DNA from: Candidatus Saccharimonadota bacterium
GTDB lineage: Bacteria > Patescibacteriota > Saccharimonadia > Saccharimonadales > Saccharimonadaceae
Length of the DNA: 64,000 nucleotides
Direction: 5' to 3'
Assembly (NCBI GenBank): GCA_017510835.1
Contig: JAFWLZ010000034.1
Location: 607-64,606, forward strand
A model generated the notes under the pieces. The model searched no databases and had not been told where the DNA came from. It saw only the letters and a program-made list of their open reading frames with translations. Below, piece after piece: positions 14,347 to 40,327 of the stretch. The stretch's first letter is position 1. Each line of letters starts with the position of its first letter. The translations under genes were made by a program, and so were the position numbers.

Positions 14347-14849
14347 ACTATTAGTGTAGCACGCTTGATAAACCTCGACATCTCGTGACGAAATTGAAAG
14401 ATAACATAGATTAATACAAGAATACCGAGGGTGATTAGCGCGAACGCGGCAATAAATATTTGTGGGTTGTCATAGGTTTCGTTCGTTATATTTTCAACTG
14501 GAAATTTTGAAGCGTCTTGACGTTTTTTACGACAACGATTCGTGCTAGGATTTAGCTCGTAGCCTTCCGGACAAGTCTTCGCAGTCTTAGCGGCTGCCTG
14601 CTTTTTGCAACGACCGGTCAGCGGGTTTCGATAATAGCCAGCCTTGCAGGCAGTCTGCGTTTTAGCTGTCGGCATTTTCTTACAACGGTTCGTCAAAACA
14701 TTCAAGTATTGCCCTTCTGGGCAAGTTTTAATAACCGAACTTGCGAGAGATTTTTCATTAATACAATTACCTGTTTCAGGATTAATAATTTTCCCTTCTG
14801 GACAACTGCGAAATTCCTGATAAATATTGTCTGCAGCCGGTGTCGGCAT
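14325..14849 (-). CDS. Cys-repeat protein with C-terminal TM anchor (174 aa)
   Basis: Four 14-aa C-x12-C repeats: CPEGKIINPETGNC, CPEGQYLNVLTNRC, CKAGYYRNPLTGRC, CPEGYELNPSTNRC. They are followed by the TM helix IFIAAFALITLGILVLIYVIFQF. It has no signal peptide of its own and is in frame with the upstream LTD gene. Confidence 0.6.
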   Translation of the reverse strand: MPTPAADNIYQEFRSCPEGKIINPETGNCINEKSLASSVIKTCPEGQYLNVLTNRCKKMPTAKTQTACKAGYYRNPLTGRCKKQAAAKTAKTCPEGYELNPSTNRCRKKRQDASKFPVENITNETYDNPQIFIAAFALITLGILVLIYVIFQFRHEMSRFIKRATLIVCRRKKY

Positions 14850-14861
14850 ATAGGTAATTAG

Positions 14862-15788
14862 TCACTGACCATCTAGAAGTGCGAGCGACGCGCCACGTTT
14901 CTGACCATGAGAATAAGTCAGCGAGTCAACAAGACCGTTTTCGTCACGCAACTCAACAGTGATTGAAGTACTAGGGTCTTTCGTTAATAAAATATCCTGA
15001 ATAATCGTATAACTCTCGGCGGTTAAGGTGCCAGTGAGTGGGTAGTTTTTATTTTTGTAACGCAGCGTGCAGGCAGTAAGATTTTGGTCATACTCATTTG
15101 AATTAAAAAGTTCGATAAATTGCTCAGAAGAATTTTCTTCATAATAGGAATAGATTTCGGTAATTTTTAAACCAGAACACGACGGCTTCTCGACCGGTTT
15201 TGGCTCCGGGATATAAATCGCATCTTCTTGAATGTTCGGATAATATTCTTCGAGCGAAAATAATTCAGTGCAATCCTTTTGGCAAATTACAGCCGTGCGA
15301 TTGTCTGCCTGTTTAGTAGCGAATTTCGGAAGTTGCTGGTCGCAGCTTAGCTTACCCCAACATAATTCGTCGATGATTTTTTCGCCCTGCACTATACGCA
15401 GACGACCAGCAGTAGAAGCCAGACCGCTAGAACTAAAGTTATATAAATAACGTGCCGGCGCGTCTTGATATTGAGAGCTTTTCTGGTAGCCAAAAACGAC
15501 AGAATCGGCACGAAGGATGGTCGACTCGGCAAACTCGAGCTCGCCGGCAAGATTGTTACTACTGTTGAAATACTGGATTTTGAAGGCTGAGAGATCGAGA
15601 TCGTCGGCGACAGTTTTTCCGAGCTCAAAAAAGTCATAGTTTTGAGCGGAGTTATCGTCCTTATATCCGGCGTTGACGGCGCGAAAAAACAGAGGCGAAG
15701 TAGGCACAGACGACTCCGCAAAAACTGGTCGCGCAAACATGGCTGCAACAATGATTCCAAGACTGGTGAAAAATTTAATATTTTTCAT
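14862..15788 (-). CDS. secreted protein with two lamin-tail-domain (LTD)-like modules
   Basis: Trimmed to ATG 15788, giving the signal MKNIKFFTSLGIIVAAMFARPVFA. LKITEIYSYY..EQFIELFNS...L.GTL resembles the LTD pattern, and a second copy lies near the N-terminus. The gene ends with TGA 14862-14864. Confidence 0.6.
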   Translation of the reverse strand: MKNIKFFTSLGIIVAAMFARPVFAESSVPTSPLFFRAVNAGYKDDNSAQNYDFFELGKTVADDLDLSAFKIQYFNSSNNLAGELEFAESTILRADSVVFGYQKSSQYQDAPARYLYNFSSSGLASTAGRLRIVQGEKIIDELCWGKLSCDQQLPKFATKQADNRTAVICQKDCTELFSLEEYYPNIQEDAIYIPEPKPVEKPSCSGLKITEIYSYYEENSSEQFIELFNSNEYDQNLTACTLRYKNKNYPLTGTLTAESYTIIQDILLTKDPSTSITVELRDENGLVDSLTYSHGQKRGASLALLDGQ

Positions 15789-15878
15789 GCCACTCATATT
15801 ATTACAAGCGCAAAATACTACAAGCATAAGCTTAATGTTTTCTCTAGAAGCCCTTCTTGCTTATGGTATAATATAGGT

Positions 15879-18242: not shown

Positions 18243-18319
18243 TGGTGGCGGGGGTTGGATTTGAACCAACGACCTTCTGGTTATGGGCCAGACGAGCTAC
18301 CAGACTGCTCTACCCCGCG
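18243..18319 (-). tRNA. initiator tRNA-Met (CAT)
   Basis: 77 nt. 5' CGCGGGG with an unpaired 1:72 position (C/C), anticodon loop CCCATAA, G30-G31:C39-C40 in the anticodon stem, T-loop TTCAAAT, encoded CCA. Confidence 0.85.
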
Positions 18320-18339: not shown

Positions 18340-18756
18340 CTAACCGAACAAAAAGTCAAGCCACTCGTCGAGATTGGTGCGTTTTTTCTGCGGCTCATCG
18401 ATTTCGGAGTACTTTGTTTTTGCAGTTTCGGTATTATCTGGCAGGATTACCATCGTCTCCCCTTCGATCATCATGCCCTGCTTTTCGCGCGCCATGATTT
18501 CCTTGTATTCGTCGGTATCGTAATATTTCTGTTCGAGCTGGAGCGTTTCGACTTCAAGCTTCAACTTTTCTGACTGAAGCGTAATCTCTTTTAACTTTTG
18601 CTCAAGTTGCCAGTTGCGCGTAGTCGCAGTAATCGCATTGTAGGTAAAAACTAAGCCCAAAATCAGAGCAGCCGCAGCAGCGATATTATGGACAGTCAAA
18701 TAATCCTTCTTCGTATAATATTTGACCCGACGAAGCTTAGTTTTAATTTTATCCAT
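18340..18756 (-). CDS. FtsB/DivIC-like septum formation initiator
   Basis: Single TM (NIAAAAALILGLVFTY) followed by a leucine-zipper-like coiled coil (LEQKLKEITLQSEKLKLEVETLQLE). TATAAT lies 6 nt upstream of ATG 18756. Confidence 0.55.
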   Translation of the reverse strand: MDKIKTKLRRVKYYTKKDYLTVHNIAAAAALILGLVFTYNAITATTRNWQLEQKLKEITLQSEKLKLEVETLQLEQKYYDTDEYKEIMAREKQGMMIEGETMVILPDNTETAKTKYSEIDEPQKKRTNLDEWLDFLFG

Positions 18757-18777: not shown

Positions 18778-20787
18778 CTATTCGATAACCCAAGGATTCA
18801 GATAATCGCCAGTGCCAGACGTAATCTTAGTACTAGGTTTCAATGAGACAACTGGGCGTACCACTAGATTTTTACTGTAATGAGATGTACTAGAGACAGG
18901 AGCATAAGTATTTCCGCCTTGTCCATACACATAGACCCACGTGTTATTGTCAACACTCGTACCTGCTGGCGACATCGTCCATTCGTATATGCTGTAGTTA
19001 CTGTGGTCTAGGTATGAGGACGTTGAGTTATATGCAAGCAATACTTCATCGATCGTCAACAAGCCTACTGGATATTCAAGCTCGCCATTACCGTTACTTT
19101 CTGAGACTGTAAATGAATCTGCCTTGCTACATGCTAGGCTCGGGTGAGCCGGATTGTTTTTGCCTTCGTTATTGTCGTAAAGCTCATTTCGCCCACGGCC
19201 GCCATTCCAGCCACGATAGAAATTAATATCACTATTGACCGCGTCATACTCGCTTATTATTCTGCCAGAAAGGCCGCCACTCCAGAAGCTTCGATCGCTA
19301 CAGAATGGCGTATCTTCAAGCTTGTTTGTATATGCAGTCATATTTTGACTATACCATTCGTCAACTTTTGCTTTTGCGAACGAATCATGTTCATTTGCGA
19401 AGACGCTATTTCTATAATCTTCAAGCTTTTTCCCGTTATACAGCGATATCGCGTAATTTGTACTGTAGATATCAGTGCTAGCAATATATACCAAATAATC
19501 TACTGTACCTGGACATTCCGTACTAGCTCTATAGCAAGTATAGCGATGACCATTAGCAACATCTCGTCCGCCAGACCATTTATCGTTAATCTCGATTATG
19601 TCACCCGAAAGAATATATTTCGTACCGTCCCATTCAACATCTGATGCAAAAGAAATCTTTCCATCTGTACTCCAGTATTCGTTAATGCGATTTTTAACAT
19701 ATGAGTCGTTAGAGTAATTGTCACGCTCCGATATATAGTCTGCATTTCCGTACATATAGCCGAGCATACGTACCGATTTTGATGCGCTATTATTAGGATC
19801 CTGGTAAGCGGTCTGAAGGTTCCCAAAATTGAACTGTGGAGCGCAGGCTGGACCATTCGGGCCTTGGAATGAATTACCATTCGCGATAAGCTTCACGCCA
19901 CCCGTGCTAGTAGTGCGAACCGCCTGCCAACATTTACCGGCAAAGTATACTTCATTATTGCTTAAGCCGGCTCGGAAATAATGAACTGGATATTCATCCT
20001 GCATCGTAGTAGAGACCGTACTTACGCCGATACGATCATAGTCAAAGGCTTGGTTTTTACCGAAGACGGTATTTTCATCTGAGCCAACAGATTTACAGGC
20101 AATAATATCGTAAAGTTCGGTCAATTCAGATGGTGTAGTACAATCGACCACGTGGCGCGGCTCCGGATATTCCTCGTCCTGAGCCTGGAAAGTAATGTAG
20201 AGATGATAGGTTGCTTCAGCATAATCGGAAGGAACCGTCTCGCTAATGAGGCCACCAGAACTGTAGCGTACTTCGCCGGCAGTGTTCACTTCACAGTTAA
20301 AGGTCACAGATTCTAGGAGTGAAAGCGTAGATTCATTTTGTTGAAGCGCAGTGTTGTAGTAGTACCAGCCATCGCCCTTTAGCGTCCAAGCACTATCATT
20401 CTGCGTATTAATAATAGCGTAGTGTTTTGTGACATTGTTTTCGGTCCAAGTAAGTGGCAAGTCGGTCGTAGTGTGGTCACTTGCAGGCGTTTGCGAATCT
20501 TTCACGCGCCAGTATTCATTAATCTTCATGCGAACATAGCGCGGGGTGGCATTTTTATTTGTCGCAATAGCGGTCTTTGGCTCTTCGTCACAAGGCTGCC
20601 AACTTTGAGGCGAGTCGAAGGTTTCGACGAATTCCATCGTATCGGCGCCAAGGCCAAAAAGGTTATTAAAGAATGTGCTGTTTTGGTTGTAGGCGATTGT
20701 TCCGACTACAGAAAAACATAATATTGCTACACCGGCTACGGCGAGAACTCGCTTCTTTTTGAGCGAAAGAGATTTGAAACGCTTCAT
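18778..20787 (-). CDS. secreted surface protein, TasA/BsaA-like N-terminal module with SipW-type signal plus a paralog-specific body (669 aa)
   Basis: MKRFKSLSLKKKRVLAVAGVAILCFSVVGTIAYNQNSTFFNNLF...EFVETFDSPQSWQPC..PKTAIATNKNATPRYVRMKINEYW...GDGWYYYNTAL..ESTLSLLESVTF. It is a full-length paralog of 38309..40327 and shares its N-module with 29051..35968. Confidence 0.7.
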   Translation of the reverse strand: MKRFKSLSLKKKRVLAVAGVAILCFSVVGTIAYNQNSTFFNNLFGLGADTMEFVETFDSPQSWQPCDEEPKTAIATNKNATPRYVRMKINEYWRVKDSQTPASDHTTTDLPLTWTENNVTKHYAIINTQNDSAWTLKGDGWYYYNTALQQNESTLSLLESVTFNCEVNTAGEVRYSSGGLISETVPSDYAEATYHLYITFQAQDEEYPEPRHVVDCTTPSELTELYDIIACKSVGSDENTVFGKNQAFDYDRIGVSTVSTTMQDEYPVHYFRAGLSNNEVYFAGKCWQAVRTTSTGGVKLIANGNSFQGPNGPACAPQFNFGNLQTAYQDPNNSASKSVRMLGYMYGNADYISERDNYSNDSYVKNRINEYWSTDGKISFASDVEWDGTKYILSGDIIEINDKWSGGRDVANGHRYTCYRASTECPGTVDYLVYIASTDIYSTNYAISLYNGKKLEDYRNSVFANEHDSFAKAKVDEWYSQNMTAYTNKLEDTPFCSDRSFWSGGLSGRIISEYDAVNSDINFYRGWNGGRGRNELYDNNEGKNNPAHPSLACSKADSFTVSESNGNGELEYPVGLLTIDEVLLAYNSTSSYLDHSNYSIYEWTMSPAGTSVDNNTWVYVYGQGGNTYAPVSSTSHYSKNLVVRPVVSLKPSTKITSGTGDYLNPWVIE

Positions 20788-20891: not shown

Positions 20892-20967
20892 GGGGGCATA
20901 GCTCAGTGGTTAGAGCAGTCGGCTCATAACCGATTGGTCGCTGGTTCAAGTCCAGCTGCCCCCACCA
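20892..20967 (+). tRNA. tRNA with CAT anticodon (elongator Met, or Ile2 read as lysidine-AU)
   Basis: 76-nt cloverleaf: GGGGGCA/TGCCCCC acceptor, loop CTCATAA, T arm GCTGG-TTCAAGT-CCAGC, CCA. From memory, the anticodon and T arms closely resemble E. coli ileX/B. subtilis tRNA-Ile2, so Ile2 is plausible. Confidence 0.85.
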
Positions 20968-21940: not shown

Positions 21941-22112
21941 ATGAACGACCTTCTATGTGTGACTAACCATCAACCATCACACTCATAGTTCTGTAGTTTT
22001 TTTATATATCCTCCTTATATACTGTTAATGCCTGAATAATTCGCCCCCACCAAGTGCTCAGACCTTTTTCTTAGAAAGAAAAAGTCTGACAAAAAGAATT
22101 TATTACGAAAAA

Positions 22113-22145
22113 GAAATCCACGCACATGACGCGGATTTCTTTTTT
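22113..22145. terminator. bidirectional terminator between convergent genes
   Basis: GAAATCCACG...CGCGGATTTC hairpin flanked by an A-run and a T-run. Confidence 0.5.
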
Positions 22146-22154
22146 GATTATTAA

Positions 22155-23090
22155 TTATTTTGAAAGCGCTTGATATATTTTCTCAAGTAAGTCATTCTGC
22201 TCAGAAGATTTTAGATTTGGCGAAACTCTTACTAAAGTTGTATTGATTAACTTGGATTTTCCGGCGCTTAGAACCCCTGTAAAACCATCTAAATATTCTT
22301 TTCGTTTCTTTGCGTCTTCTACTGAGCGAAATACTTCTATAGTACCGCCAGCATCTGATCCACTTTCAGCGCAACTATTTGGGCTTGCTACGAAATTAAA
22401 ATTATCATCAAGATCGCCATAGTACTTCAGATCAACACGATTATCAATATAGCTTACTTTTATATAATACTGACCATCTTTGCCAATTTCATTATTCGGA
22501 TCATTATCTTCATTTAAAATACATGATTCTTTTATCGAATCAATCGTCTTTAGCGCAGCAGCAATTGCTTCCTTATTAGGCTCTGCGTTAATGGATGCGT
22601 CGTCTTCGCTAGTTAAATTCGTAGTGATGGTTAGTTTATAGTTAACTACTTCTTTGCCATCTTTGTCTTTCATGACTAATTCATAATTATTATCCGTAGA
22701 TGCGATTTTCTCTTCCCTCACTACTACTTTTTTATATGAGATTTTTTTGCCATTGAAAGAAATGCTGTTTTCATTAGTATTGAAATTTAAAGAATTATCA
22801 TCTTTCAATTCTACAGTTCCGTCGCCGCTGTATGTGCCAGAAATTTTCAATTCCTCGCATACATAAGATCCATTTTCTTCTTTTGAATTACAGTCAACTG
22901 AAAGAGAGGCTGATATTTCTTTTATTCCATTATTGTTTACAGAATTACTAACATTCGCACCATTAATTACGATGTCGTATTTCGGTAATAACAAGAAAAA
23001 CACTAAGGCTCCTATAGACACAGCGATAATGATTGCCGCAATAATGATAAATACTTTCTTATTGCTCTTTTTACTTTTTTCTTTATTCAT
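22155..23090 (-). CDS. membrane-anchored extracellular protein, unknown function (311 aa), AT-rich
   Basis: N-terminal anchor KKVFIIIAAIIIAVSIGALVFFLLL. SD GAGGAGG lies upstream. Confidence 0.6.
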   Translation of the reverse strand: MNKEKSKKSNKKVFIIIAAIIIAVSIGALVFFLLLPKYDIVINGANVSNSVNNNGIKEISASLSVDCNSKEENGSYVCEELKISGTYSGDGTVELKDDNSLNFNTNENSISFNGKKISYKKVVVREEKIASTDNNYELVMKDKDGKEVVNYKLTITTNLTSEDDASINAEPNKEAIAAALKTIDSIKESCILNEDNDPNNEIGKDGQYYIKVSYIDNRVDLKYYGDLDDNFNFVASPNSCAESGSDAGGTIEVFRSVEDAKKRKEYLDGFTGVLSAGKSKLINTTLVRVSPNLKSSEQNDLLEKIYQALSK

Positions 23091-23232
23091 AATACTGCCT
23101 CCTCTTTTATAAAAATAATATCACAGTTGTCCACTTCAAGTTATGGCGCATCCGATAATGCTCATATAAATCATTAGGCAGTAAAGCAAAAACGAGTCAC
23201 AATATAAATGTAACTCGTTTTATAATTAATGA

Positions 23233-23835
23233 TTATAATACTTTCTTCTGCCAGGATTTCTTGCCACATTTCGGGCAACGAAGATGGCGAGTGCGACCCA
23301 TATGCATCGCAAAGAAGACTGGCCAGTATTTTGGTACGTATTTATGCCCACATTCTTCGCATTTATAGTATCCGGCGATTTGCTCGATACGGAGACCAAA
23401 GAACATCGTGGCAAGGAATAACACGAAACCGATGCTCATAATTGTCCATCTAGTCCAATCCGGCATTTCTATTGCAGCTGCAATAATAACTAACGTCAAC
23501 AGCGTCACTACTGCAATTACTGCAAGCACCCACTCGAGGCTAAGCAGTTGCTTGTCCTTCTGTTCTTTTAGCTTTGTAAGCTCGAGGAGGTTTTCTTCTA
23601 ATCTCTTTTCATTATTTTTCATGTCAACTATTTCTCCGCTGAATAAGTCATTAATTGTAATGTCAAAAAGTTTACATAGGGTTGGCATTTTGGCGGCCTC
23701 GGGCAGACAAATGCCGCGCTCCCATTTTGAGATTGAGCGATTCGAAAGATCCAGCTCTTCCGCAAGACTCTCCTGCGTGAAGCCCTTTTCGACGCGCTTT
23801 TTAGCGATAAATTTTCCAATTTTCTTTAAGTCCAT
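23233..23835 (-). CDS. XRE-family HTH regulator fused to TM helices and a C-terminal zinc ribbon
   Basis: HTH FTQESLAEELDLSNRSISKWERG, two TM helices, then CEECGHKY...CPKCGKK. SD AAGGAG lies upstream. Confidence 0.75.
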   Translation of the reverse strand: MDLKKIGKFIAKKRVEKGFTQESLAEELDLSNRSISKWERGICLPEAAKMPTLCKLFDITINDLFSGEIVDMKNNEKRLEENLLELTKLKEQKDKQLLSLEWVLAVIAVVTLLTLVIIAAAIEMPDWTRWTIMSIGFVLFLATMFFGLRIEQIAGYYKCEECGHKYVPKYWPVFFAMHMGRTRHLRCPKCGKKSWQKKVL

Positions 23836-23999
23836 TAGGCTCCTTTATATTAATTTTAGTCCATTTTAAGCGTTTGCAGTAAAAAAGACCACAAACCGTA
23901 GGTAGAATCTTTGCTTATATTGCATTTTTTAGCGTTTTGTGGTATAATATATATAGGCGCCCTATGGGTGTACTTTAAAAAAGAAAGAGGTGATAAACC

Positions 24000-24833
24000 T
24001 TGCAAGAAAACAGCTACAATCTAAAAGAGGAAGCTTGGACTGCATTCAAAGAGGCAATGAGTAGAAAAGCCGCCATCACAACGATTCATGATCTCGCATA
24101 CAATATTTATAATGATGCAAGACTGGAATACGAACGAATGATCCAAGCCATCGAAGAATCCAAGAGGATTTGGGAAGAGTTCAACCAGCTGAGCGAAGAA
24201 ACCGACACAAAAATTAGCGAATTATTTCAGCTTAGTGCAGTAGAACACCGCGCAATGTGTGATGCTTACGCCAAATCGAAAGAAGCCAGAAATGAGAAGA
24301 AAAGTTTCTTAGCAGAAAGATATTCTCAGGAAGGATTCGATCATCGCGAAAAGCGAGACGAGATTAACGAGCAAATTTCTGAATTAAAACGCGCGCTGTA
24401 TGAAGCTAAACGTAATACGAAAAAGAAATCGCAATATGTTAATCCGGAAGAACTCGAAGATGCCAAGGAGCTCATGGAGCACTGGCGAGAAAAATTTAAT
24501 ATTGAAAAGGAGAAAATGCAGAAAGCAAAAGCCGAATGCAACGAACTCCACGAAAAAGCGCTGAAGGCGCAAGAAAAATATGAGCGCGAGAAAGAAGCGC
24601 GTAAAGTAGCTAACAACATCGTACCTCAGCCACTCAAAGCAATGTCGCTTTACGAGGGTCTGAGAGAAGAATATGTCGCTCTTCTAGAGGAAGATGCGGA
24701 AATCATGCAGACACTGAAAGAATGCAATAAAGTCGAAAAAAGGTTTAGAAAAGAAAGCGACAAGTTCAGAAGAAAAATAAAGAAAAACTGGTCGCTAGAT
24801 AAGGCCGGTATAAACTGGGCCGATAGAGCATAA
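24000..24833 (+). CDS. Lys/Glu-rich coiled-coil protein (277 aa, TTG start)
   Basis: SD AGAGGTGA lies 7 nt upstream of TTG 24000. Highly charged heptad-like sequence. Confidence 0.55.
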   Translation: MQENSYNLKEEAWTAFKEAMSRKAAITTIHDLAYNIYNDARLEYERMIQAIEESKRIWEEFNQLSEETDTKISELFQLSAVEHRAMCDAYAKSKEARNEKKSFLAERYSQEGFDHREKRDEINEQISELKRALYEAKRNTKKKSQYVNPEELEDAKELMEHWREKFNIEKEKMQKAKAECNELHEKALKAQEKYEREKEARKVANNIVPQPLKAMSLYEGLREEYVALLEEDAEIMQTLKECNKVEKRFRKESDKFRRKIKKNWSLDKAGINWADRA

Positions 24834-24845
24834 GACACCTCAAAA

Positions 24846-24878
24846 AACGTCGAGCAGCAACATCGCTCGGCGTTTTTT
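24846..24878. terminator. bidirectional intrinsic terminator
   Basis: AACGTCGAGC...GCTCGGCGTT hairpin with one G-U pair, an A-run before it and TTTTT after it. Confidence 0.6.
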
Positions 24879-25806
24879 AATGCAGGAGAAGAAGCCAGAC
24901 CATCAAGGGCATCGTGCCGAGCGAGAGAATCGTCGAAATCGTGACAAGTTCTGAAGCCTCAATATCATTCCCGCCATATTTCGCCGCAAAGAGGCCAAGG
25001 CTAGTCGCGGTTGGAAGAGTTTGAATAATCGTACAGACCACAATGACTTCGTCTGGGAAATTCAGGAATTTGAGCAAGAAATAAGTCATCACCGGCCCAA
25101 TAATAAGTTGAATAATCGCCGTGACAGTCAGGCGCCACTTTTTGAGCAGTTTTCTGAAATCAGCATGGCTCAGCATGAAGCCGATACAAATAATCGACAG
25201 CGCGGTCGTGGCGTTGCCAGTAAACTGGGCGGCGTCCATGACAAAACCAGGCAGACGAATTCCCGATAGAAACATTGCCATACCGAGAAAAACAGCAATA
25301 ATGTTTGGATTCTTTACAATGCCGTAGAATAGTTTCGGCGTGAGTTTGCGCTCGAATAGATACACGCCATAGGAAAAGAGTGCGATATTGAAGGCGATAA
25401 TGAAGCCGCAATATGGAATAATTCCCTGTTCGCCAAAAACGCTAGAAATGATTGGATAGCCAAGGAAAGTAGCGTTGTTGAAAATAAGCGCGAATTGCGA
25501 TTCATAACGAAGCTCGCCTTTATAGAAAGCCTTATTAAAAATGAGTTTACTGGCAATGATGAGGGCTAGCATGACAATCACGCCCGCCGCAAGACCTTTA
25601 AAGAAGAGGTCTGAGGTATCCTCGTTGAATTCGCTCGGGAAAGCGACAAAGAGTGACGCCGGCATAAAGACCGTCAATAGAAGATTAACGAGACAACGAT
25701 TAGATTTCGTGTCAATTAGCTTGGCTTTGCCGAGGATAAAACCGAGCACTAGAATAATAGCGATAGTGCCGAGGCGCGAGTAGAAAAGCTCAAGCGGAAT
25801 ATTCAT
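24877..25806 (-). CDS. AEC (auxin efflux carrier) family transporter
   Basis: Trimmed to ATG 25806, which has TATAAT 6 nt upstream. About ten TM helices. The N-terminus LGFILGKAKLID...LLLTVFMPASLF is typical of AEC/malate permease-like proteins. Confidence 0.75.
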   Translation of the reverse strand: MNIPLELFYSRLGTIAIILVLGFILGKAKLIDTKSNRCLVNLLLTVFMPASLFVAFPSEFNEDTSDLFFKGLAAGVIVMLALIIASKLIFNKAFYKGELRYESQFALIFNNATFLGYPIISSVFGEQGIIPYCGFIIAFNIALFSYGVYLFERKLTPKLFYGIVKNPNIIAVFLGMAMFLSGIRLPGFVMDAAQFTGNATTALSIICIGFMLSHADFRKLLKKWRLTVTAIIQLIIGPVMTYFLLKFLNFPDEVIVVCTIIQTLPTATSLGLFAAKYGGNDIEASELVTISTILSLGTMPLMVWLLLLH

Positions 25807-25880
25807 ACCATAATTATACAACACAAAATACGACCACCGTAGTGGCCGTATCTGAAACCTAAATAATCAACAAGTGCTAA

Positions 25881-26087: not shown

Positions 26088-26160
26088 TTTAGACTTTCCT
26101 CCGTTAGTTAGTTATACTCTTATCTTATGGCCCCTGTAAGGTGTTGTCAAGAGGAAAACG

Positions 26161-26874: not shown

Positions 26875-26893
26875 AATATATTATTATTGTATC

Positions 26894-28114: not shown

Positions 28115-28120
28115 AAAAAT

Positions 28121-29016: not shown

Positions 29017-29050
29017 AGCTTTATTATACAGCAATGTTTTAGGTTTTCTC

Positions 29051-32000
29051 TTATGAGTTTGGCGTCCAAACGAGGATCATGTACTTATTGCCGTTTTCAT
29101 CGGTAAATTCCCTGAGCTCATACATGTATTCTGTTTGTGTCGCACCAGAGGATATTGCTACAGTTCTGCCGGTGACTCTACCGTCATAGAAGTTTATAAC
29201 GCCAGAATTATTTGTAATACCGACGCCGTTTCGAGAAGTATTATTAACGTTTGCATTGATTGCTGGATTCGTTGTCGATACGTCAGCTTGTTCTGTGCCG
29301 CGAGTATCAGGATTATCGTCTGGAACGCCCATCGTTATTGTGCCAGTGTTTGTATTGAATATACCGTAAACATTACCATTATTGAACGCTGTTATTTCCC
29401 CGCTTGGGAAGTTGATGGTGCCAGCATTTTGAATCATTTTAACTTGACGGCCCGTTGCAGCCCATTTAGAGGTATCGAGTGTAACAGTCGAATTATCAAT
29501 ATTGACTGAGCCTCTATTTTCGAAGAAGTCAATGTAAACATTCGTATCGCTAAGCGGAACTAGCGTTAAGCTAGAATTCTTAGCCGTAAAGGATGTGTTT
29601 GCTGGAATGGTATTGATAGTGTATTCGGTAGAGCTCGGTCTCGACTGATTATTGTGATAACGAGAAGTATGCTGGACATTGTCGAATATTAATTCGCCAG
29701 TACCACTCAGGTTGATGGAATTGCTAGTGTCTTCTTCGTCTATTGGCCCAGAAACGCTATCCTTAATAGTCGTCCGATTGTTTTGAACGGATATAGAGCC
29801 TTTCAGGACTGAATTCTGAACATCTACTGTTCCATTCTCTGAATAAATTGAATAGTATGAACCATAAAGAGTTGAGTTGTTTACTGTAGTCGCACCGCTC
29901 CCTTTATTATTGAGCGAGTATGCTTTCGCAACCGCCTCAATGCCATCGATATCGAGCGTACCATTATTCCTAAACGCAACGTATGCGCTATCAACATCAA
30001 CATTATGAACGGCCAATTCTGCGCCTTCATTGTTCGTTATTACCGAAGACCCTCCTTCGAGCGTGATTGTCGATGAGTCAATTTCGTGAGCACTGTTGAT
30101 AATACCGACCTTACCATTATTTACGATTGGATTATTACTCCAAGTGTCGTAACCATGCATATCGATAGTAATCACTTTTTCTGCCGGAATAGTAAGACTA
30201 TAGAACATATAGTTCTCACCAATAATATCGATAATATCATCCTCTAGCGCTGCATCTACTGCCGCCTGGAGCGTCTTATATCTCGTGCCAGCACTGCCGC
30301 CAATTTGTGCTACATCATAGCTAGCAACAAGATAGCATTCCTGGTAGGTGACTCCACCTTCGGTAACAGTATCTGAATGCATCGATGAATCATCGGCAAT
30401 AGTTTTGATTGCACTGCCTTCGAAAGCTTTTATTTCGCCCCTTAATGTGCCATCGTAAAAGTTAAACACGCCAGAAAGCGCATATATGCTACTTGTTATG
30501 ATCGGTTTAGTACGGTCAAGTGTGCCGTCATTGCTTCCGATGGTTGCCGGCGCCGACGTCTCAGTATAGGCGCCATACATACCAGCAATTGTACCACCGG
30601 TGATAGTATATTCTTTTCCATAAACACCATAAGATGTACCCGTCGACGCAATTGCAGTTATTGTGCCTCCCTGAATAATCGTATTTTTAGCCGCCGTAAC
30701 GCCCTTTGCTGCCTTTTTATCGGATTGAGCAGAGATATTTCCGCCGCTAATTGTGCCCGAGCCAAAGCTGACGCCGTATGCTTCACCATAATATTGGCTC
30801 TCAGCCGAGATAGTTCCACCCGTAATTGAACCGCCACCAGTTGCGGCATAAGAATTACCATAAAGAGAGCTTGCAGTAATTGTACCGCTGCTAATCGACA
30901 TGTTTGAGGAGCTAATGCCGGTAGCCGGACCATTTTTAGCACCAGCAGTAATCACCGCATTATCACTGATAGTCATATAGCCAGCTTGAGCGCCCTGGGC
31001 AGACGCGGAAGAGTCCGCACACTCCGTAGAAACGGAAATCGTAGCGTCATCCTCAATTGTAAGAGTGTTGCCGCTCACGCCAGTCACAGCACCGGCAGTA
31101 GATGTCGCCGCAACGGAAAAATTATTCTTCATGTGAATTACGCCATTTCCACAGTATATAGCAACGGTGCCAGCAGTAGCGCTATCTGCCGTAATTGAAC
31201 CATTATTAAGGTTTATTGTAGTAGGTTTTTCGTAATCTCCATCTACGCAGTAAACACCTGCATTAGTACTCGTAATCGTGCCGCCATTCATCGTTAGCGT
31301 CGAACCATATATGCTATGAATCGTACGATAAGAAGAAGATAAATTGCCCGAATTAATTGTCAAATCGGTATAGTTCTTAATTGCCGACGTTGATGAGCCA
31401 ACGCCAATGATGGCGCCAGTTTGTTCTTGGCTGCTATCTTGGATAATCATCGTGCTCTTATTAATAATTGGCTGCGAATAAGACAAAGTATGTCCGTTCA
31501 AATCAAGCGTAATGGTTTTTCCTTCCGGACTATCTGGATGGACCGCTTGTACTGTCGCATCCTCGATAACCGTGATTGTGCCGGAATCGCCAGTGATTGC
31601 ATTGTAAGCGTTTCCGAGCGAATTATATGTTGCGCCATCAACTTCTAGATAGTCGCTCGCTTCTACGAGCCAACAGTTCTCTTTATCGTCAATCGTTTCT
31701 TTATGATAAGTATAACCATCTGGAATAGAAGAAATGCTGTCAGGATAATATGCTTCTGTACCGCCTTTTAATACACCGTCATAGAAACTAAAGACGGCTC
31801 CTCGATCGTTATTATGCAAAGCATATTCGCCGCCCGTTATGCTTGGATTGTCGATATTTACTCTATCGCTATTATCGCCAATGGTTACTGGTGCAAGATC
31901 TGAGTATATACCATACTTTTTACCATTAATCGTGCCTTCTTTAATAATAATTCCGTTATTACTACCAAAGTTATATGCTTGAATACCATAGCTTGTCAGG

Positions 32001-35000
32001 CCGCGATCAGAATAGGCGCTAATCGTGCCGCCAGTAATAACAGGACTAATGTTTTGGGTTCCATAGTCAAAGAAGATGCCTTTCGTAGTCGAGTAATCTC
32101 CGTGTGCTGTAATTTGTCCGCCCGTCATCGAGAATTCGCGCGAATAATAGGTATAGATGCCAAAGACACTTCCACTATAGGCTTCCGCAGTAACTACGGC
32201 TCCGTCGCTTATCGACATGCCTGTAGTTTCAGCTCTAATTCCATAAACCGTCGCGTAAGTAGATTCATTATCACGTGACGTTATTGTGCCACCTTCCAAA
32301 ATCACCGTACCGCCCTTAGAATAAATGCCTTGAGTAAATGAAGCGTTATTTACCGCCAACGCGCTTATCGTAGCATTATCTTTAATAGTTAGAGTGCCTC
32401 CATTATTGTTGATAGCATACATTTGGCTTCTGGAGGACTGAAGATTGCTAACCACAGATACATCTACAGTATCTTTTATTGTAGTATTACACTGCGTATA
32501 TACCCCAGTCGTAGCAACATTATCTATATTCTCTGCAAATATCTTCGTGTTGCCGCCGATAGTAACAGTGGCTCTAGAGCTAGAACAATATACAACGTTA
32601 CTGGAGCTAGTAATCAGCGAATTATTAATAGTCATTGAACCATATTCGCCAGTATATCGAGCGTATCCGTTTATTGTGCTGTCGTCGATTGCCACGCTTC
32701 CGTTTCTCGACGAAGAAGAAATATTGCCCGTCACCGTAGTCGAGATAACCGATATCGAACCTGTGCCGGAAATAGCACTAGTATTAGTGTTCGTCAGTTC
32801 GCCGGTTTTTGCTTGACTACTATCAGTAAGAATAAGTGACCCACCACTCAAAATTGACTGCGTGGTGTTTAATTTATGCCCATTCAAATCAATAGTGACG
32901 GTTTTTCCTGATGGGCTATTTGGAATAGCAGCCTCCAAGTCGGCATCAGTAATTACTTTAACAGTGCCGGTATCGCCTGAAATTGCGTTATATGCATCCT
33001 CGAATGAGCTATATGTATTACCATCGACTTCTAAGAAGCCCGTCATTTCTACGAGCCAGCAGTTCTCTTTATCATCAATCGTTTCTTTATGATAGGTATA
33101 TCCGTCAGGAATAGCAGAAATCGCTCCTTCGCCAATTGCATAGGTTCCACCTTTGATTATTCCGTCAAAGAAATTAATTGAACTGCCGCTTAGGCCGAGA
33201 TTTCCGCCGATAATTTCTGGATGCTCGATATCAACATTGCCGTCATTGTCTCCGAGCTTAGTCGTCCCGCCACTAGCGAGAATGCCATAAGTAGTGCCTT
33301 CAAATTTGCCTGATGTAATTGTAATGTTAGAGCTAGCATTAACGCCGGCAGCAGTACCAGTTGTATTTGCAATTGCCGTCGCCGTAACTCCAGAAACAGT
33401 GCTAGCTCCGCTAGTATTGCTGATGCCGTACGCAGTACCACTATTCGTGTTTGCAGTAACCGTTCCGCCAGTAATCGTTGCCGTGTTTTCAATTCCTATT
33501 GCCGTTCCAGTATTGCTCGTCACATTAATTGTGCCGCCAGAAATCTTCTTTGCGGAAACACCAATTGCTGGCAGTTTTTTCTTATTAACGACAGTAATTG
33601 TGCCGCCACTGATTTCCCCGCCAGTCGCCTGAATGCCCTGCGCAGTACTAACATTTGCATAGTTGCCGTTGTTTTCAACATACAGCGTACCGCCAGACAT
33701 ATTTACAATCTGAGAATAGCCCACAGTTCCTTTTCCAGTCGATGAGCTGATGACTGAAACATCACCACCGGTTTGAGTAACATTCTTACCAAAGGAGAAC
33801 GCGCTGCTCCCCATACCATTAATCGTGATTGTGCCACCGTTAATATAGGTGTTTTTAGAGTTTGATGAATTATTGACAGCTGCCCCAGATAGCGGTCCAG
33901 CAGTGATTGTGCCGCCATTAATCGTGAGTTCAGCATTACAAGCAAATGATCGCTGAGATTTTATCGTAGCACCATCGTTAATCACGACCGTACCGCCATC
34001 AATGGCGCATGTTTCCCATCCTCTGCCAGTCGTCGTATCGATTGTACCACCACTAATTGTCGCCGTAGCTGTAGCTGTGTTCAAGATGTTGCCATAGATT
34101 GTTCCATTCGTCCATTCGAAGTCTGAAGTATCATTATATATAGCCTTTGGACCACTTCGATTCCCGACAATTGCAGAATCCGCATCGAGATCATAGCTAC
34201 CACCAGATTTAGTTTCCAGCGCATAACTGGTATTTGAATTTGTTACTATAGCATTGCGTAAAATTAGTTTACCGCCATTTTTTAAAGTCGTATTTGCATT
34301 TGCGCTAACAATCGTCATGTCACGAATAGTTAGATCTCCTTCATTATCCATCGTCTGCTCGGTTTTCAGCGAGCCAGATTCAGTAGAGCTATTTAGAATA
34401 GTAAAGTCGCCATTATTTGTAGCTACATTTTTGAAAACGACGTTGTATCCTGCTATGTCAAAGACAATCTCCGTATTTTCTGGGACTGTAATAGTATAGG
34501 CAGCATTAAAATCGCGCACAGCATATATCTGATAGCCAGTTTCCGCTGAGACGTTAATGTTATCTTGGAGATCGTAATAGAATACCTCGCCGCCAACAAT
34601 TGTCTTGGAGACAGCGTTATCGTTTGCTGAGAGCTCAACATGATGAATATCGCGCGCCTGAATATAGCTGACTAGTGGGTGATAGTGAATGTCGCCAATT
34701 TCTCCGGTCTGATGATAAAATGGAGTATCATTATAGCCACCATTAAGACCAATATCGCCTTCAAGATAGCCGTCGTAATAATTGAAGGTGCCGTTCTGAT
34801 TGAGACCAACAGTCGTGCCAATAAAGCGGACATAATCATTAACGACAATCGCCGCATTCTGGTCATCATAATCATTAATACCAACAGTGAGCGTGCCGTT
34901 GTTCGTGACAGCAATGCCGTTTGGATTATTAATCTCGCCATCAAGCACGGTAAGGTCGCCATTTACGGTATTCGTGAGTGAACCAGTGACGGTATGTCCG

Positions 35001-35968
35001 TCTAGGTTGAGTGTGACAGTTTTTTCATTCGTAACCACTTCCTCAGTATCGACGAGCAAAGTAATTATATCGTTCGCCTGCGCTTCATTATGAGCAGCCA
35101 TAATGGATGGATAAATTCTGCCGGTGCGCTCAATACGAGCAACTTGTGGCCCGGATTGTTCCCAATTTGCAACAAGCGAAGTATCACCGTTAATCGTTAT
35201 AGTTGAATCAGTGTAACTGCTACTGCCATTGAGCGTCCAGTCGACGAAATCATAGCCACTGCGCTCGATATCGGACAAATCTATCTCTGTACCCTTATCT
35301 ACCCTAGTAGTATATACTTCGCCGCTATCATTGAAGGTGCCGCCATTCGGATCAATCGAAACGTTGTACTGGTCAGCTGGCGGTTGCTCGCCCCAATAAG
35401 TTTGCATGCGAATAAAGATGTGGTATGTCGCTTCACTATACTCGCTAATATCTTTATCACAATCCGTACCGTCATCATTCTCGCAGTACTTGAGCTCTTT
35501 ACTCATATTCATGCCACAGTTCATTGTGACGGATTTAAAGAACGAGTTCGACTCGTCGCCTGGAGCTAACTGGTGCTTATAGTAATACCAGCCATCACCA
35601 CCATCTTCCCAGTCGGCCTGATTCTGGAAGTTGATGATAGCAATACTATCGCCATCTTTCTGGAGAGGCATATCTTCGCCCTCTTTGGAAAGCCAATATT
35701 CATCATACTTAAGACGAAGATTAACTGTCACACCTTCTTCATTTCTAGCGATTGCAGTCTTTGGGATTTCCTGGCATGGCTGCCAATCGTCCGGAGAATC
35801 AAATGTTTCGACAAAATCGATACGAGTCACCTCATCCACATGAAATAGATTGTCAAATATATGTGTACTTTGGTTAACAGCAATCGTTCCGCCGATTGCG
35901 AGGAACCCGACGACGCCGAAAATAATCGGCAAAATTTTCCGGGACCGTTTTTCTCTTGTTTTTTTCAT
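29051..35968 (-). CDS. giant surface protein (2305 aa): SipW-type signal/TasA-like N-module, Listeria-Bacteroides repeat, four beta-helix modules
   Basis: N-terminus LAIGGTIAVNQSTHIFDNLF...DFVETFDSPDDWQPCQEIPKTAIARNE..., then YNVSIDPNGGTF..GYDFVDWTL...LVANWE (Flg_new-type repeat). This is followed by long Gly/Thr/Asn-rich GGTI-type repeats. All antisense ORFs in this span are shadows. Confidence 0.8.
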   Translation of the reverse strand: MKKTREKRSRKILPIIFGVVGFLAIGGTIAVNQSTHIFDNLFHVDEVTRIDFVETFDSPDDWQPCQEIPKTAIARNEEGVTVNLRLKYDEYWLSKEGEDMPLQKDGDSIAIINFQNQADWEDGGDGWYYYKHQLAPGDESNSFFKSVTMNCGMNMSKELKYCENDDGTDCDKDISEYSEATYHIFIRMQTYWGEQPPADQYNVSIDPNGGTFNDSGEVYTTRVDKGTEIDLSDIERSGYDFVDWTLNGSSSYTDSTITINGDTSLVANWEQSGPQVARIERTGRIYPSIMAAHNEAQANDIITLLVDTEEVVTNEKTVTLNLDGHTVTGSLTNTVNGDLTVLDGEINNPNGIAVTNNGTLTVGINDYDDQNAAIVVNDYVRFIGTTVGLNQNGTFNYYDGYLEGDIGLNGGYNDTPFYHQTGEIGDIHYHPLVSYIQARDIHHVELSANDNAVSKTIVGGEVFYYDLQDNINVSAETGYQIYAVRDFNAAYTITVPENTEIVFDIAGYNVVFKNVATNNGDFTILNSSTESGSLKTEQTMDNEGDLTIRDMTIVSANANTTLKNGGKLILRNAIVTNSNTSYALETKSGGSYDLDADSAIVGNRSGPKAIYNDTSDFEWTNGTIYGNILNTATATATISGGTIDTTTGRGWETCAIDGGTVVINDGATIKSQRSFACNAELTINGGTITAGPLSGAAVNNSSNSKNTYINGGTITINGMGSSAFSFGKNVTQTGGDVSVISSSTGKGTVGYSQIVNMSGGTLYVENNGNYANVSTAQGIQATGGEISGGTITVVNKKKLPAIGVSAKKISGGTINVTSNTGTAIGIENTATITGGTVTANTNSGTAYGISNTSGASTVSGVTATAIANTTGTAAGVNASSNITITSGKFEGTTYGILASGGTTKLGDNDGNVDIEHPEIIGGNLGLSGSSINFFDGIIKGGTYAIGEGAISAIPDGYTYHKETIDDKENCWLVEMTGFLEVDGNTYSSFEDAYNAISGDTGTVKVITDADLEAAIPNSPSGKTVTIDLNGHKLNTTQSILSGGSLILTDSSQAKTGELTNTNTSAISGTGSISVISTTVTGNISSSSRNGSVAIDDSTINGYARYTGEYGSMTINNSLITSSSNVVYCSSSRATVTIGGNTKIFAENIDNVATTGVYTQCNTTIKDTVDVSVVSNLQSSRSQMYAINNNGGTLTIKDNATISALAVNNASFTQGIYSKGGTVILEGGTITSRDNESTYATVYGIRAETTGMSISDGAVVTAEAYSGSVFGIYTYYSREFSMTGGQITAHGDYSTTKGIFFDYGTQNISPVITGGTISAYSDRGLTSYGIQAYNFGSNNGIIIKEGTINGKKYGIYSDLAPVTIGDNSDRVNIDNPSITGGEYALHNNDRGAVFSFYDGVLKGGTEAYYPDSISSIPDGYTYHKETIDDKENCWLVEASDYLEVDGATYNSLGNAYNAITGDSGTITVIEDATVQAVHPDSPEGKTITLDLNGHTLSYSQPIINKSTMIIQDSSQEQTGAIIGVGSSTSAIKNYTDLTINSGNLSSSYRTIHSIYGSTLTMNGGTITSTNAGVYCVDGDYEKPTTINLNNGSITADSATAGTVAIYCGNGVIHMKNNFSVAATSTAGAVTGVSGNTLTIEDDATISVSTECADSSASAQGAQAGYMTISDNAVITAGAKNGPATGISSSNMSISSGTITASSLYGNSYAATGGGSITGGTISAESQYYGEAYGVSFGSGTISGGNISAQSDKKAAKGVTAAKNTIIQGGTITAIASTGTSYGVYGKEYTITGGTIAGMYGAYTETSAPATIGSNDGTLDRTKPIITSSIYALSGVFNFYDGTLRGEIKAFEGSAIKTIADDSSMHSDTVTEGGVTYQECYLVASYDVAQIGGSAGTRYKTLQAAVDAALEDDIIDIIGENYMFYSLTIPAEKVITIDMHGYDTWSNNPIVNNGKVGIINSAHEIDSSTITLEGGSSVITNNEGAELAVHNVDVDSAYVAFRNNGTLDIDGIEAVAKAYSLNNKGSGATTVNNSTLYGSYYSIYSENGTVDVQNSVLKGSISVQNNRTTIKDSVSGPIDEEDTSNSINLSGTGELIFDNVQHTSRYHNNQSRPSSTEYTINTIPANTSFTAKNSSLTLVPLSDTNVYIDFFENRGSVNIDNSTVTLDTSKWAATGRQVKMIQNAGTINFPSGEITAFNNGNVYGIFNTNTGTITMGVPDDNPDTRGTEQADVSTTNPAINANVNNTSRNGVGITNNSGVINFYDGRVTGRTVAISSGATQTEYMYELREFTDENGNKYMILVWTPNS
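30300..35150 (-). repeat. four degenerate tandem coding modules (about 1.3-2 kb each) inside the giant gene
   Basis: Each module opens with a header resembling VDG.TY.S...AYNAI.GD.G...VI.D........KT.T.DLNGH.L. Most close with F.DG..KGG......IPDGYTYHKETIDDKENCWLVE. The 68-nt segments 31661-31728 and 33047-33114 match at about 60 of 68 positions (offset 1386 bp). Confidence 0.6.
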
Positions 35969-38308: not shown

Positions 38309-40327
38309 CTATTCTTCTATTCTATACGGCGCATTCCATGAATTTCCGTTGCCAGAAATCACTTTAGCGCCAGGCTTTAGTGATATCACCGGCATAACCG
38401 TATATTCAGAACTTAGACTAGAGTATTCAAGACTACCCTCACCTCTACTATCTCTATATGACGAAAAGTTCCATACATTCGGGCCGTTGCCGGATGATGC
38501 CATAGCAAACGAGCCAGTCCAGAACGTGCTACCACTAATTGAAGACCATTTATTGTTATATGTTAATATAATTTCATCTGCAGAAGGAAGGCCTACTGGG
38601 TAAGTTAAGGCACCGTTGCCGATCGTGCTAGAGACTGTATATGAATCTTCTTTACGGCAATCTAAAGATGGTTTTGCATTATTTACGACAGATGCGTGAT
38701 TGTAGTAATTGCGCATAAAGCTTCCAGAGAAGGCACGGTAAGCGCCGTATGGGTCACTTGGGCCAACATTCTCCTGAATGAAATCTTTGCCCGACATACC
38801 TCCGCCGCGGATATCGCGATCGGCGCAATAAACGGTATCTTCAATCATATTCGAATGGCTGCTAAGGTTAGTCCTATACCAGCCATCTACGACAGTCTTT
38901 ATTGTTGAGTCGTGAAGGTTTTCATGTATGTGACTCTTATAATCTTCTATATCGTCGCCATTATATAGAGAAACGGCGTACGAGACATCAGTTCCACTAG
39001 TAACCGAAACCATGTAGTCAACATATTCGCATTCATCGACTGGTCCACGACAAGTGTAGCGATAACCCGTCATCACATCCAAATAACTATCTTCGGGCGG
39101 ATTATTATAGTTTCCTTGCCAGAATTTAAGGACTTTTTTCTCACCAACAAGATGATATTTTTCTCCGTCCCAACTGACATCATTCGCAAACCACATTTCT
39201 GGATTATTACGATCGCCAGTTGAAGTATAGAAGGTTTCGTACATATAATTGCCATCTTCATGCGGGACTGCGTTTTCATGGTCGCCGTACATATAGCCAG
39301 CATAGTTGAGATTCATTGATCCCTGGTGCATATCCTGATAATTGGTATTAAACTTTGACTTTAGCTCTTCGCCGCTAAAGCACATTCTACTATATTCATT
39401 TTCTCCAACTTGAACCGTAGCCATGTCGCCGGAATACATCAACTTGACGCCACCAGTGCTAGTTGTTCGAAGAATCTGCCAACATTTATCGGCGAAATCA
39501 ACATAATTTGTATTTATGCCGGAGCGATAATAATAGACTGGATATTCGTCGTCTTTTGTAGAGGCATAAGTGCTGACGCCGATGCGGTTATCATCAAAGG
39601 TCGCTGATGTGCCAAATGTAGTATTATCGTCTGGGCCGAGAGTTTGACAAGCAATAATATCATAAAGCTCGGTTGCGTTATCGCAGTCGACCACGTGGCG
39701 TGGCTCTGGATATTCCTCGTCGCTCATCTGGAAAGTAATATAAAGATGATAGGTCGCATCAGCGTATTCAGTTGGAACAGATTCACCAGCTTTGCCGTCA
39801 GCACTGTAGCGGATTTCACCAGCAGTATTTACTTCACAGTTAAAGGTTACAGATTTTAGGAGTGAAAGCGTTTCTTCATCTTGGCTAAGTGCAGTCTTGT
39901 AGTAATACCAGCCATCACGCTTTAGTTCCCACTTATCGTCATTTTGAGTATTAATGACAGCGTAATTCTTGGTTGTGCCAGAATCATCCCAGGTCAAAGG
40001 AAGATCGGACGTTTCATGATCGCTTGCAGGGGTTTGCGAATTCTTTTCACGCCAGTATTCGTTAATCTTCATTCTTACATAGCGTGGAGTAGAGTTCTTG
40101 TTTCTGGCAATTGCGGTCTTTGGTGTTTCTTGACATGGCTGCCAATCATCTGGGGAATCAAAAGTCTCTACAAACTCTACATTATCATCGGCGAGCTTAA
40201 AGAGATTGTTGAAAAATATAGAATCTTGATTGAAGGCAATTGTGCCTACAACAACCAAACATAATACTGATACGCCTGCAATGGCGAGAGTTCGCTTCTT
40301 GAGCGAAAGATTCTTGAAACGCTTCAT
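38309..40327 (-). CDS. secreted surface protein, paralog of 18778..20787 (672 aa)
   Basis: MKRFKNLSLKKRTLAIAGVSVLCLVVVGTIAFNQDSIFFNNLF...EFVETFDSPDDWQPCQETPKTAIARNKNSTPRYVRMKINEYW... It is colinear with the 669-aa paralog to the C-terminus (..VMPVISLKPGAKVISG..). Confidence 0.7.
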   Translation of the reverse strand: MKRFKNLSLKKRTLAIAGVSVLCLVVVGTIAFNQDSIFFNNLFKLADDNVEFVETFDSPDDWQPCQETPKTAIARNKNSTPRYVRMKINEYWREKNSQTPASDHETSDLPLTWDDSGTTKNYAVINTQNDDKWELKRDGWYYYKTALSQDEETLSLLKSVTFNCEVNTAGEIRYSADGKAGESVPTEYADATYHLYITFQMSDEEYPEPRHVVDCDNATELYDIIACQTLGPDDNTTFGTSATFDDNRIGVSTYASTKDDEYPVYYYRSGINTNYVDFADKCWQILRTTSTGGVKLMYSGDMATVQVGENEYSRMCFSGEELKSKFNTNYQDMHQGSMNLNYAGYMYGDHENAVPHEDGNYMYETFYTSTGDRNNPEMWFANDVSWDGEKYHLVGEKKVLKFWQGNYNNPPEDSYLDVMTGYRYTCRGPVDECEYVDYMVSVTSGTDVSYAVSLYNGDDIEDYKSHIHENLHDSTIKTVVDGWYRTNLSSHSNMIEDTVYCADRDIRGGGMSGKDFIQENVGPSDPYGAYRAFSGSFMRNYYNHASVVNNAKPSLDCRKEDSYTVSSTIGNGALTYPVGLPSADEIILTYNNKWSSISGSTFWTGSFAMASSGNGPNVWNFSSYRDSRGEGSLEYSSLSSEYTVMPVISLKPGAKVISGNGNSWNAPYRIEE

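Follow-up and report, generated by a model that had tools for sequence, protein, structure and literature searches.

The BsaA-family module

The window analysed here is a stretch of 64,000 nucleotides from contig JAFWLZ010000034.1 of a Candidatus Saccharimonadota bacterium (assembly GCA_017510835.1). Three of its genes, labelled wA, wB and wG (Table 1), open with the same N-terminal module of about 200 residues; homologous proteins are labelled P#### and related genome loci L###. The shared module was first described in an earlier note on this DNA, and the open reading frames (ORFs) are as given there. A hidden Markov model (HMM) of the module finds exactly three copies among the six-frame ORFs of the window. 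Over the first ∼205 residues wA and wB are 74% identical, and wG is 40–45% identical to either. Chance similarity is ruled out by the E-values, which are 2e-47 for the wB module against wG (BLASTP) and 1e-15 for the match to BsaA described below. All of the motifs quoted in the note are present, namely GTIA(Y/F/V)NQ, F(N/D)NLF, (E/D)FVETFDSP..WQPC.E.PKTAIA.N, RYVRMKINEYW or LRLKYDEYW, DGWYYY and SVT(F/M)NC.

Table 1. Coordinates of the three module-bearing genes and their parts (window numbering; aa, amino-acid residues)
Feature	Position	Strand	Description
wA	18778..20787	minus	669 aa; module aa 1–206 (20170–20787), body aa 207–669 (18781–20169)
wB	38309..40327	minus	672 aa; signal, BsaA-type module, acidic/Pro linker, ∼465-aa body
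wB signal peptide (predicted)	aa 1–31 (40235..40327)	minus	Basic n-region, hydrophobic core, GTIA
wB putative donor strand FNQDSIFFNNLFKLADD	aa 32–48 (40184..40234)	minus	Contains F39-x-N41-x-F43
wB module β-sandwich core	aa 49–205 (39713..40183)	minus	Holds E54, K70, C65/C164
wB passenger body	aa 206–672 (38312..39712)	minus	Cys-rich, predicted extracellular; C-terminal part DUF6273-related
wB key codons	N41 40205–40207; E54 40166–40168; K70 40118–40120; C65 40133–40135; C164 39836–39838
wG (giant)	29051..35968	minus	2305 aa; module aa 1–200 (35369–35968)
wG Listeria-Bacteroides repeat	aa 201–267 (35168–35368)	minus	Pfam Flg_new match
wG repeat region	29054–35167	minus	About 2040 aa, after the Flg_new repeat; ∼460-aa super-repeats

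The assignment of the module to the BsaA family, proposed in the earlier note, holds under the NCBIfam model TIGR04090 (BsaA family SipW-dependent biofilm matrix protein, exp_by_SipW_IV; curated cut-off 60 bits), with scores of 62.6 bits for wA, 78.6 bits for wB (residues 10–178) and 67.8 bits for the isolated wG module. The whole 2305-residue wG protein scores 47.6 bits, below the cut-off. The positive control, BsaA of Clostridium perfringens, scores 90 bits, and the HMM of the Saccharibacteria module matches this protein at E = 1e-15. Close homologs of the window proteins are already labelled as BsaA family by NCBI (PGAP) and JGI; among them is P0034, the wB ortholog (91% identity), which NCBI calls a BsaA-family protein. 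By sequence homology, the window module is thus a BsaA-family domain.

C. perfringens BsaA (CPE0515) is a fibre protein of the biofilm matrix that assembles by donor-strand exchange into extracellular polymers resistant to heat and SDS (Obana 2020, PMC7395162; Kivimaki 2025 preprint, PMC11580942); its mass is ∼23 kDa in Obana 2020. The authentic protein was located by turning the bsaA primers (Obana et al. supplement, PMC7395162) into a degenerate search pattern; a back-translated BsaC antibody peptide (2025 preprint) matched no locus. The locus recovered (L027) contains srtB, sipW, bsaA and two bsaB-like genes, and its BsaA of 236 residues carries V33, N35, F37, E56 and K74 in the same numbering as Kivimaki et al. 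(PMC11580942).

Residues 28–38 of BsaA form a donor strand, and N35 is joined to K74 by an intermolecular isopeptide bond whose formation is catalysed by E56 (Kivimaki et al., PMC11580942). In MAFFT and HMM alignments N35, E56 and K74 correspond to N41, E54 and K70 of wB, in the common motifs Phi-x-N-x-F, E-x-F-D and K-x5-N, respectively; the triad is N42/E55/K71 in wA and N40/E54/K70 in wG. When 1.84 billion representatives were searched exhaustively with a profile, 3395 proteins passed E<=1e-3 and 225 of them passed E<=1e-30. The architecture and residue statistics given here refer to the 150 best cluster representatives, column counts including only sequences with a residue at that column. 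The N/E/K triad is complete in 121 of the 150 and takes the form N/D/K in 15 more. By column, N41 is conserved in 140 of 144 sequences, F43 in 138 of 144 and K70 in 140 of 145, and the E54 column holds 126 Glu and 18 Asp residues out of 145. A fibre-forming role, as suggested in the earlier note, is plausible because the module family retains BsaA's donor-strand motif as well as its isopeptide triad.

The first 31 residues of wB contain the sole hydrophobic 19-mer of the protein, and the end of this signal aligns with GGSLA of BsaA and GGGTWA of TasA. Cleavage would be expected after A31; the predicted −1 residue is Ala in 140 of 143 sequences, and T29 at −3 is also conserved across the representatives. 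In an AlphaFold2 (AF2) monomer model of the module (mean predicted local distance difference test score, pLDDT, 84.5), the signal helix is followed by a confident β-sandwich core (pLDDT >90), and the donor segment (residues 35–48) has low pLDDT and is unplaced. The BsaA monomer has been described likewise, with its donor strand unplaced (PMC11580942). Two cysteines, C65 and C164, covary among the 150 relatives (Cys,Cys in 104; Gly,Pro in 28), and C. perfringens BsaA has neither; they probably form a disulfide specific to this branch and near the acceptor lysine.

The window modules therefore resemble BsaA in family model, in the order of signal, donor strand and β-sandwich, in the residue-for-residue alignment of the triad and its flanking motifs and in the absence of an LPXTG motif. 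They differ in several respects. BsaA is a single-domain protein, whereas here the domain makes up only the first 30% of a protein of about 670 residues or the first 9% of one of 2305. The window proteins have eight fewer linker residues between the donor strand and the core than BsaA, and they also have the extra covarying cysteine pair. Finally, the published list of triad-bearing taxa comprises Clostridia, Coprobacillaceae, Enterococcaceae and Thermococcus (PMC11580942), and the phylum of the window's host, a Saccharibacterium, is absent from it.

Passengers behind the module

Among the best 150 representatives, the module is followed by the body found in wA and wB in 63, by a giant extension in 16 and by other sequence in 50 (some of them truncated), and it stands alone in 21, giving 129 fused against 21 free-standing forms. 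Free-standing forms of ∼203 residues make up the majority of the closest word-indexed matches, and they stop exactly where the linker of the fused forms starts. Comparison of wB with the related locus L003 gives identities of 80, 98, 98 and 96% in successive 50-residue segments of the module and of only 14–48% in the body; the DNA similarity (88.8%) is limited to the module and 47 nucleotides upstream, and the flanks are not syntenic. The boundary between module and body in this pair is a mosaic junction. The view of the module as an N-terminal handle for different passengers is thus borne out in the window and in hundreds of relatives, with identity dropping sharply at the module/body junction. 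The claim that it is reused on three very different proteins has to be narrowed to two kinds of passenger, because wA and wB are paralogs. Their conserved body of ∼470 residues, also reported in the earlier note, is found exactly twice in the window by a body HMM, and the two copies are 41% identical.

The AF2 model of the wB body has a pLDDT of 82.7 and a predicted template-modelling score (pTM) of 0.87. A Foldseek search of this model against the PDB found nothing (TM below 0.1), as did a search of the body profile against PDB sequences. A word-indexed search returned 1260 homologs of the body, and at least 579 loci are present in species-representative genomes. These genomes belong to Saccharibacteria and to Bacilli with reduced genomes (RF39 or 'Mycoplasma sp. 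CAG:877' type, Erysipelotrichaceae), all from the gut, and a single genome often holds many copies. Of 11 body proteins in Saccharibacteria, nine carry the BsaA module. Elsewhere the body stands behind camelysin/TasA-type N-termini that pass PF12389 and TIGR04088 (P0142 and P0122), behind a type IV pilin N-terminus (P0120) and behind VWA or LRR regions. Many of the Bacilli copies start with GGTFAY(L/F)T-type signals, but these handles cannot be called TasA-like, and that label was dropped, because ten of them gave no Pfam family.

The body is massively expanded in metagenome-assembled genomes (MAGs) of reduced-genome gut Bacilli (L031–L110; for example CAKPNA01, CAJUCU01 and HF992493-8). Among the 80 loci retained, up to nine lie in one MAG, behind handles of ∼200–460 residues. 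Several short body-bearing contigs are binned as Muribaculaceae, which may reflect mis-binning.

The C-terminal ∼200 residues of the body (residues 268–467) align with the region of homolog P0050 which gives the match to DUF6273 (PF19789), a domain also carried by P0054, P0057, P0069, P0092 and P0100. Foldseek comparison of the body with BFVD gave weak matches (E>=0.02), among which DUF6273 phage proteins recur. In phage receptor-binding proteins, DUF6273 is reported to be a C-type-lectin-like domain; its variable region lies at the C-terminus and is often diversified by diversity-generating retroelements (PMC10743442, PMC11792537). The DUF6273-related part is the most variable stretch of the body between the paralogs. 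By the alignment with P0050, the C-terminal part of the body is a distant relative of DUF6273; a difference is that the body has a large additional N-terminal part without a known relative. A diversity-generating retroelement was considered as the source of the variability and rejected: no template/variable repeat pair was found at the 3′ ends of wA and wB, and no reverse transcriptase was present among the window ORFs scanned against Pfam.

The remainder of wG is rich in Thr, Gly, Ser, Ile and Asn and contains super-repeats of ∼460 residues, two of which (residues 880–1340 and 1340–1782) are 37% identical. Orthologous giants exist, such as that of L015 with 2334 residues.

Proposed fibre assembly and its alternatives

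These features suggest that wA, wB and wG are exported fibre subunits that are assembled by donor-strand exchange, locked by isopeptide bonds and display variable adhesin domains, a reading to which a probability of roughly 0.55 is assigned. All three proteins would be exported by the Sec route, and removal of the signal after GTIA would free an N-terminal strand containing F-x-N-x-F. This strand would enter the β-sandwich of the next subunit, where the donor N41 would be locked to the acceptor K70 by a spontaneous isopeptide bond, with the buried E54 as catalyst as in BsaA. The passengers would be shown along the fibre or at its end, behind the ∼205-residue module and a short acidic, proline-containing linker. 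Such a fibre would present many copies of variable binding domains and would probably attach to host bacteria or gut surfaces. Display of a C-terminal passenger has a precedent: BsaA with FAST fused to its C-terminus still undergoes export and appears on the cell surface (PMC11580942). Unlike sortase-assembled Gram-positive pilins, the three window proteins lack any LPXTG-like motif and have no hydrophobic segment at the C-terminus, and the N-terminus is their only hydrophobic segment; retention at the surface would therefore require the signal or assembly.

Several observations weigh against this fibre model. Signal cleavage, polymerisation, the isopeptide bond, the role as an adhesin and the processing peptidase are all predicted from sequence, and a passenger of 465 residues, and still more one of 2100, on each subunit may be sterically incompatible with a fibre. 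The adhesin role would rest on the distant relation to DUF6273, and neither wA nor wB gives a significant match to Pfam PF19789, which is matched by only one of 46 aligned homologs. A Foldseek search of the module model against the PDB gave no significant match and did not place TasA among the top 50; the best matches are generic jelly-rolls at E>=0.03 (the Ena2A fibre and viral capsids), although the signal helix may depress these scores. HMMER searches of PDB sequences with the module profile and with a broad BsaA/camelysin profile found nothing.

The signal and the gene neighbourhood also differ from those of BsaA. The earlier note had described the signals as SipW-type, but none of the three window N-termini matches TIGR04088, the SipW-cognate signal model (cut-off 19 bits, scored on the N-terminal ∼35 residues), at E<=10, whereas matches are obtained with BsaA (24 bits), with P0004, a free-standing homolog from Saccharibacteria (25 bits), and with P0142 (24.7 bits). 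The window genes lack the sipW, bsaB, bsaC and srtB neighbours of BsaA, which is encoded in an operon sipW-bsaA-bsaB-bsaC, and no sortase or other assembly genes were found in the window or near 25 related Saccharibacteria loci, unlike in Firmicute operons. That the window itself has no gene for a SipW-type peptidase, as the earlier note had observed, is confirmed by a motif scan, by phmmer with a real SipW and by Pfam scans of about 40 called window ORFs, which identified no peptidase. A search beyond the window was equally negative: phmmer found no SipW homolog in 398,551 bases comprising the window and the 25 loci, with ∼10-kb flanks, and the two best matches were discarded as reflecting only transmembrane-helix similarity. 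Since no SipW lies nearby, processing is probably carried out by a general signal peptidase. The same has been proposed for archaeal TasA-like pili, also for want of a SipW (PMC9245690).

Of the 'TasA/BsaA-like' description, the BsaA half is well founded and the TasA half is weakly supported. The Pfam family PF12389 (Peptidase_M73), which represents TasA and camelysin, has no match at E<=1 in wA, wB or wG, and the module has no Pfam match of any kind. Alignment of a broad module profile with TasA by hhalign gives a probability of 84% (E = 7e-6), but it spans just 77 columns at the N-terminus, the signal among them; the TasA sequence used is 100% identical to chain A of 8AUR. In this alignment E50 and K68 of TasA correspond to E54 and K70, and an Ala occupies the position of the isopeptide Asn, consistent with the reported lack of the triad in TasA (PMC11580942). 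TasA of Bacillus subtilis (5OF1, 8AUR) and camelysin share with the window proteins a signal ending in G-G-T-x-A that is followed by a donor strand and a β-sandwich, but TasA is a single-domain protein encoded with sipW and tapA. The hhalign alignment is the single result that points, weakly, to TasA itself.

In one alternative, the fused proteins would be minor subunits (tip adhesins, caps or bases) joined by donor-strand exchange to shafts built from free-standing proteins of ∼200 residues, in the manner of FimH in type 1 pili or of TapA alongside TasA; a protein of 2305 residues is easier to imagine at the end of a fibre. Free-standing proteins of 202–214 residues with the same triad do occur in related genomes (P0002, P0004, L011, L012 and L017), and the closest MAG, CAMKFS, has both a free-standing (L012) and a fused (L003) gene. 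FimH integrates one domain into its fibre through strand complementation and binds a ligand with the other, and the same two-domain analogy applies to AbpB/TapA-type minor subunits of TasA-like fibres (PMC9245690). These are analogies without homology, and in the window proteins the fibre domain comes first and the passenger after it; in addition, the window system differs from FimH in having no chaperone or usher and in its predicted covalent lock. The predominance of fused over free-standing forms among the best 150 representatives, the five fused genes of MAG RGIG5773, in which no free-standing gene was found (the pattern scan may have missed one), and the lack of a free-standing module gene within the window make this arrangement unlikely.

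A role as monomeric surface proteins is less likely again. Here the N-terminus would be an uncleaved anchor and the BsaA-like domain a stalk, with the N/E/K residues serving folding or an intramolecular bond. This would agree with the N-terminal helix as the sole hydrophobic segment, with the missing wall-sorting signal, with the failure of the signal in the SipW-cognate model and with the lack of a dedicated peptidase nearby; BsaA oligomers are also membrane-anchored (PMC11580942). However, the −1 and −3 positions (A31 and T29) are nearly invariant, as those of a cleavage site would be, free-standing homologs pass TIGR04088 and the exact donor-strand motif of BsaA is kept, including the Asn that is needed only for an intermolecular linkage.

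That the proteins are soluble secreted monomers, for example enzymes or toxins against host bacteria, with the module as an export or folding domain, is highly improbable: an enzymatic role of the body is possible because it has invariant Asp, Glu and Cys positions and no known fold, but it matches no enzyme family in Pfam or NCBIfam, it is also fused to pilin and camelysin-type fibre subunits, and the conservation of the triad would be left without an explanation.

Genomic setting and implications

All three genes are scattered amid housekeeping genes. Next to wA are a divIC-like gene (18340–18756) and two tRNA-Met genes in opposite orientations (18243–18319 on the minus strand and 20892–20967 on the plus strand), which flank the pair; this site could be a hot spot of gene gain. 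The neighbours of wB are an ABC ATPase gene on one side and putative smpB and aspS genes, named by N-terminal sequence alone, on the other. Downstream of wG lie two small conserved genes (28143–29034, minus strand), encoding a protein of 177 residues with a signal and a coiled-coil-like region and one of 122 residues that has a transmembrane segment and ends in an acidic tail. This pair is kept in related MAGs with 60–79% identity (L005 14272–15163; L010 9455–10338), where it sits downstream of module-plus-body genes or of aspS.

In contigs from one genome per species, all 23 of the 23 module-bearing related loci belong to Candidatus Saccharibacteria MAGs from animal guts (sources include sheep ileum, buffalo omasum and horse faeces), with four or five copies of the module per genome. 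One of these loci, L005 from MAG RGIG5773, is syntenic with positions 24865–44104 of the window at 77–84% DNA identity, and the habitat of the window's Saccharibacterium is therefore gut or rumen. The synteny is broken at wG (window 29051–35968 against L005 11996–18449): RGIG5773 has no giant between aspS and the gene for the 177-residue protein. It has an extra tandem module-plus-body paralog between the wB ortholog and smpB.

Four successive genes at 2344–6847 (minus strand; 515, 330, 276 and 382 residues) resemble minor or pseudo-pilins, and a gene for RNase Y (6831–8351) lies directly upstream of them. Two of the four score 20.3 and 20.9 bits against Pfam N_methyl, slightly under the curated cut-off of 21.2 bits, and a third (3892–4884) has an FTIIELML motif that was recognized only by eye. 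In C. perfringens, the secretion of BsaA and BsaC is affected by type IV pilus genes, and pilA2 is regulated by RNase Y (PMC7395162, PMC11580942).

Other predicted exported proteins are encoded in the window. One of 601 residues, a predicted surface protein (44117–45922, minus strand), carries a signal at its N-terminus and, at its C-terminus, a hydrophobic stretch that ends in KRR; it matches no Pfam family, and the related loci that were fetched contain no homolog of it. Two adjoining genes (14325–15827, minus strand) encode a protein of 321 residues with a Lamin-tail domain and a Cys-rich protein of 174 residues with repeated CPEGQ-type motifs and a weak match to the chitin-binding family CBM_14. 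The region 22001–24000, whose G+C content is 0.36 compared with about 0.44 outside it, may be foreign DNA; it contains genes for an Xre-type helix-turn-helix protein with a zinc ribbon (23233–23835) and for a membrane protein of 311 residues without a family (22155–23090). Proteins of 1070 residues (60545–63757, minus strand) and 337 residues (46182–47195, plus strand) have no Pfam match.

A survey has reported homologs of PF12389 (TasA-like) in Patescibacteria (PMC9245690). The literature searched contained no paper linking Saccharibacteria with TasA, BsaA or isopeptide bonds, and nothing on the fusion of a BsaA module to large variable passengers, on conservation of the isopeptide triad in the phylum of Saccharibacteria or on one passenger common to different fibre scaffolds. 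The body, which occurs at no fewer than 579 genomic loci in Saccharibacteria and Bacilli of the gut, defines a large passenger domain with no structural assignment. The 'exchange-and-lock' mechanism of BsaA would be extended from Firmicute matrix proteins with a single domain to display proteins of several domains in the candidate phyla radiation, in a module family that, at four or five copies per genome, is gained, lost and recombined inside otherwise syntenic regions.

For the recognition of hosts by ultrasmall epibionts and their attachment to them, the candidates so far have mainly been type IV pili. A predicted covalently locked fibre subunit fused to hypervariable binding domains would provide a second concrete candidate. 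A bolder and distinctly tentative proposal is that every subunit carries an exchangeable receptor-binding cassette, so that a covalent, chaperone-free, polyvalent and rapidly re-targetable fibre, rather than type IV pili alone, decides the choice of host. If this were true, reduced-genome gut Bacilli may do likewise with other handles, and the presence of the lectin-like body on pilin and camelysin-type handles would point to a pool of cassettes shared across lineages and unrelated fibre scaffolds.

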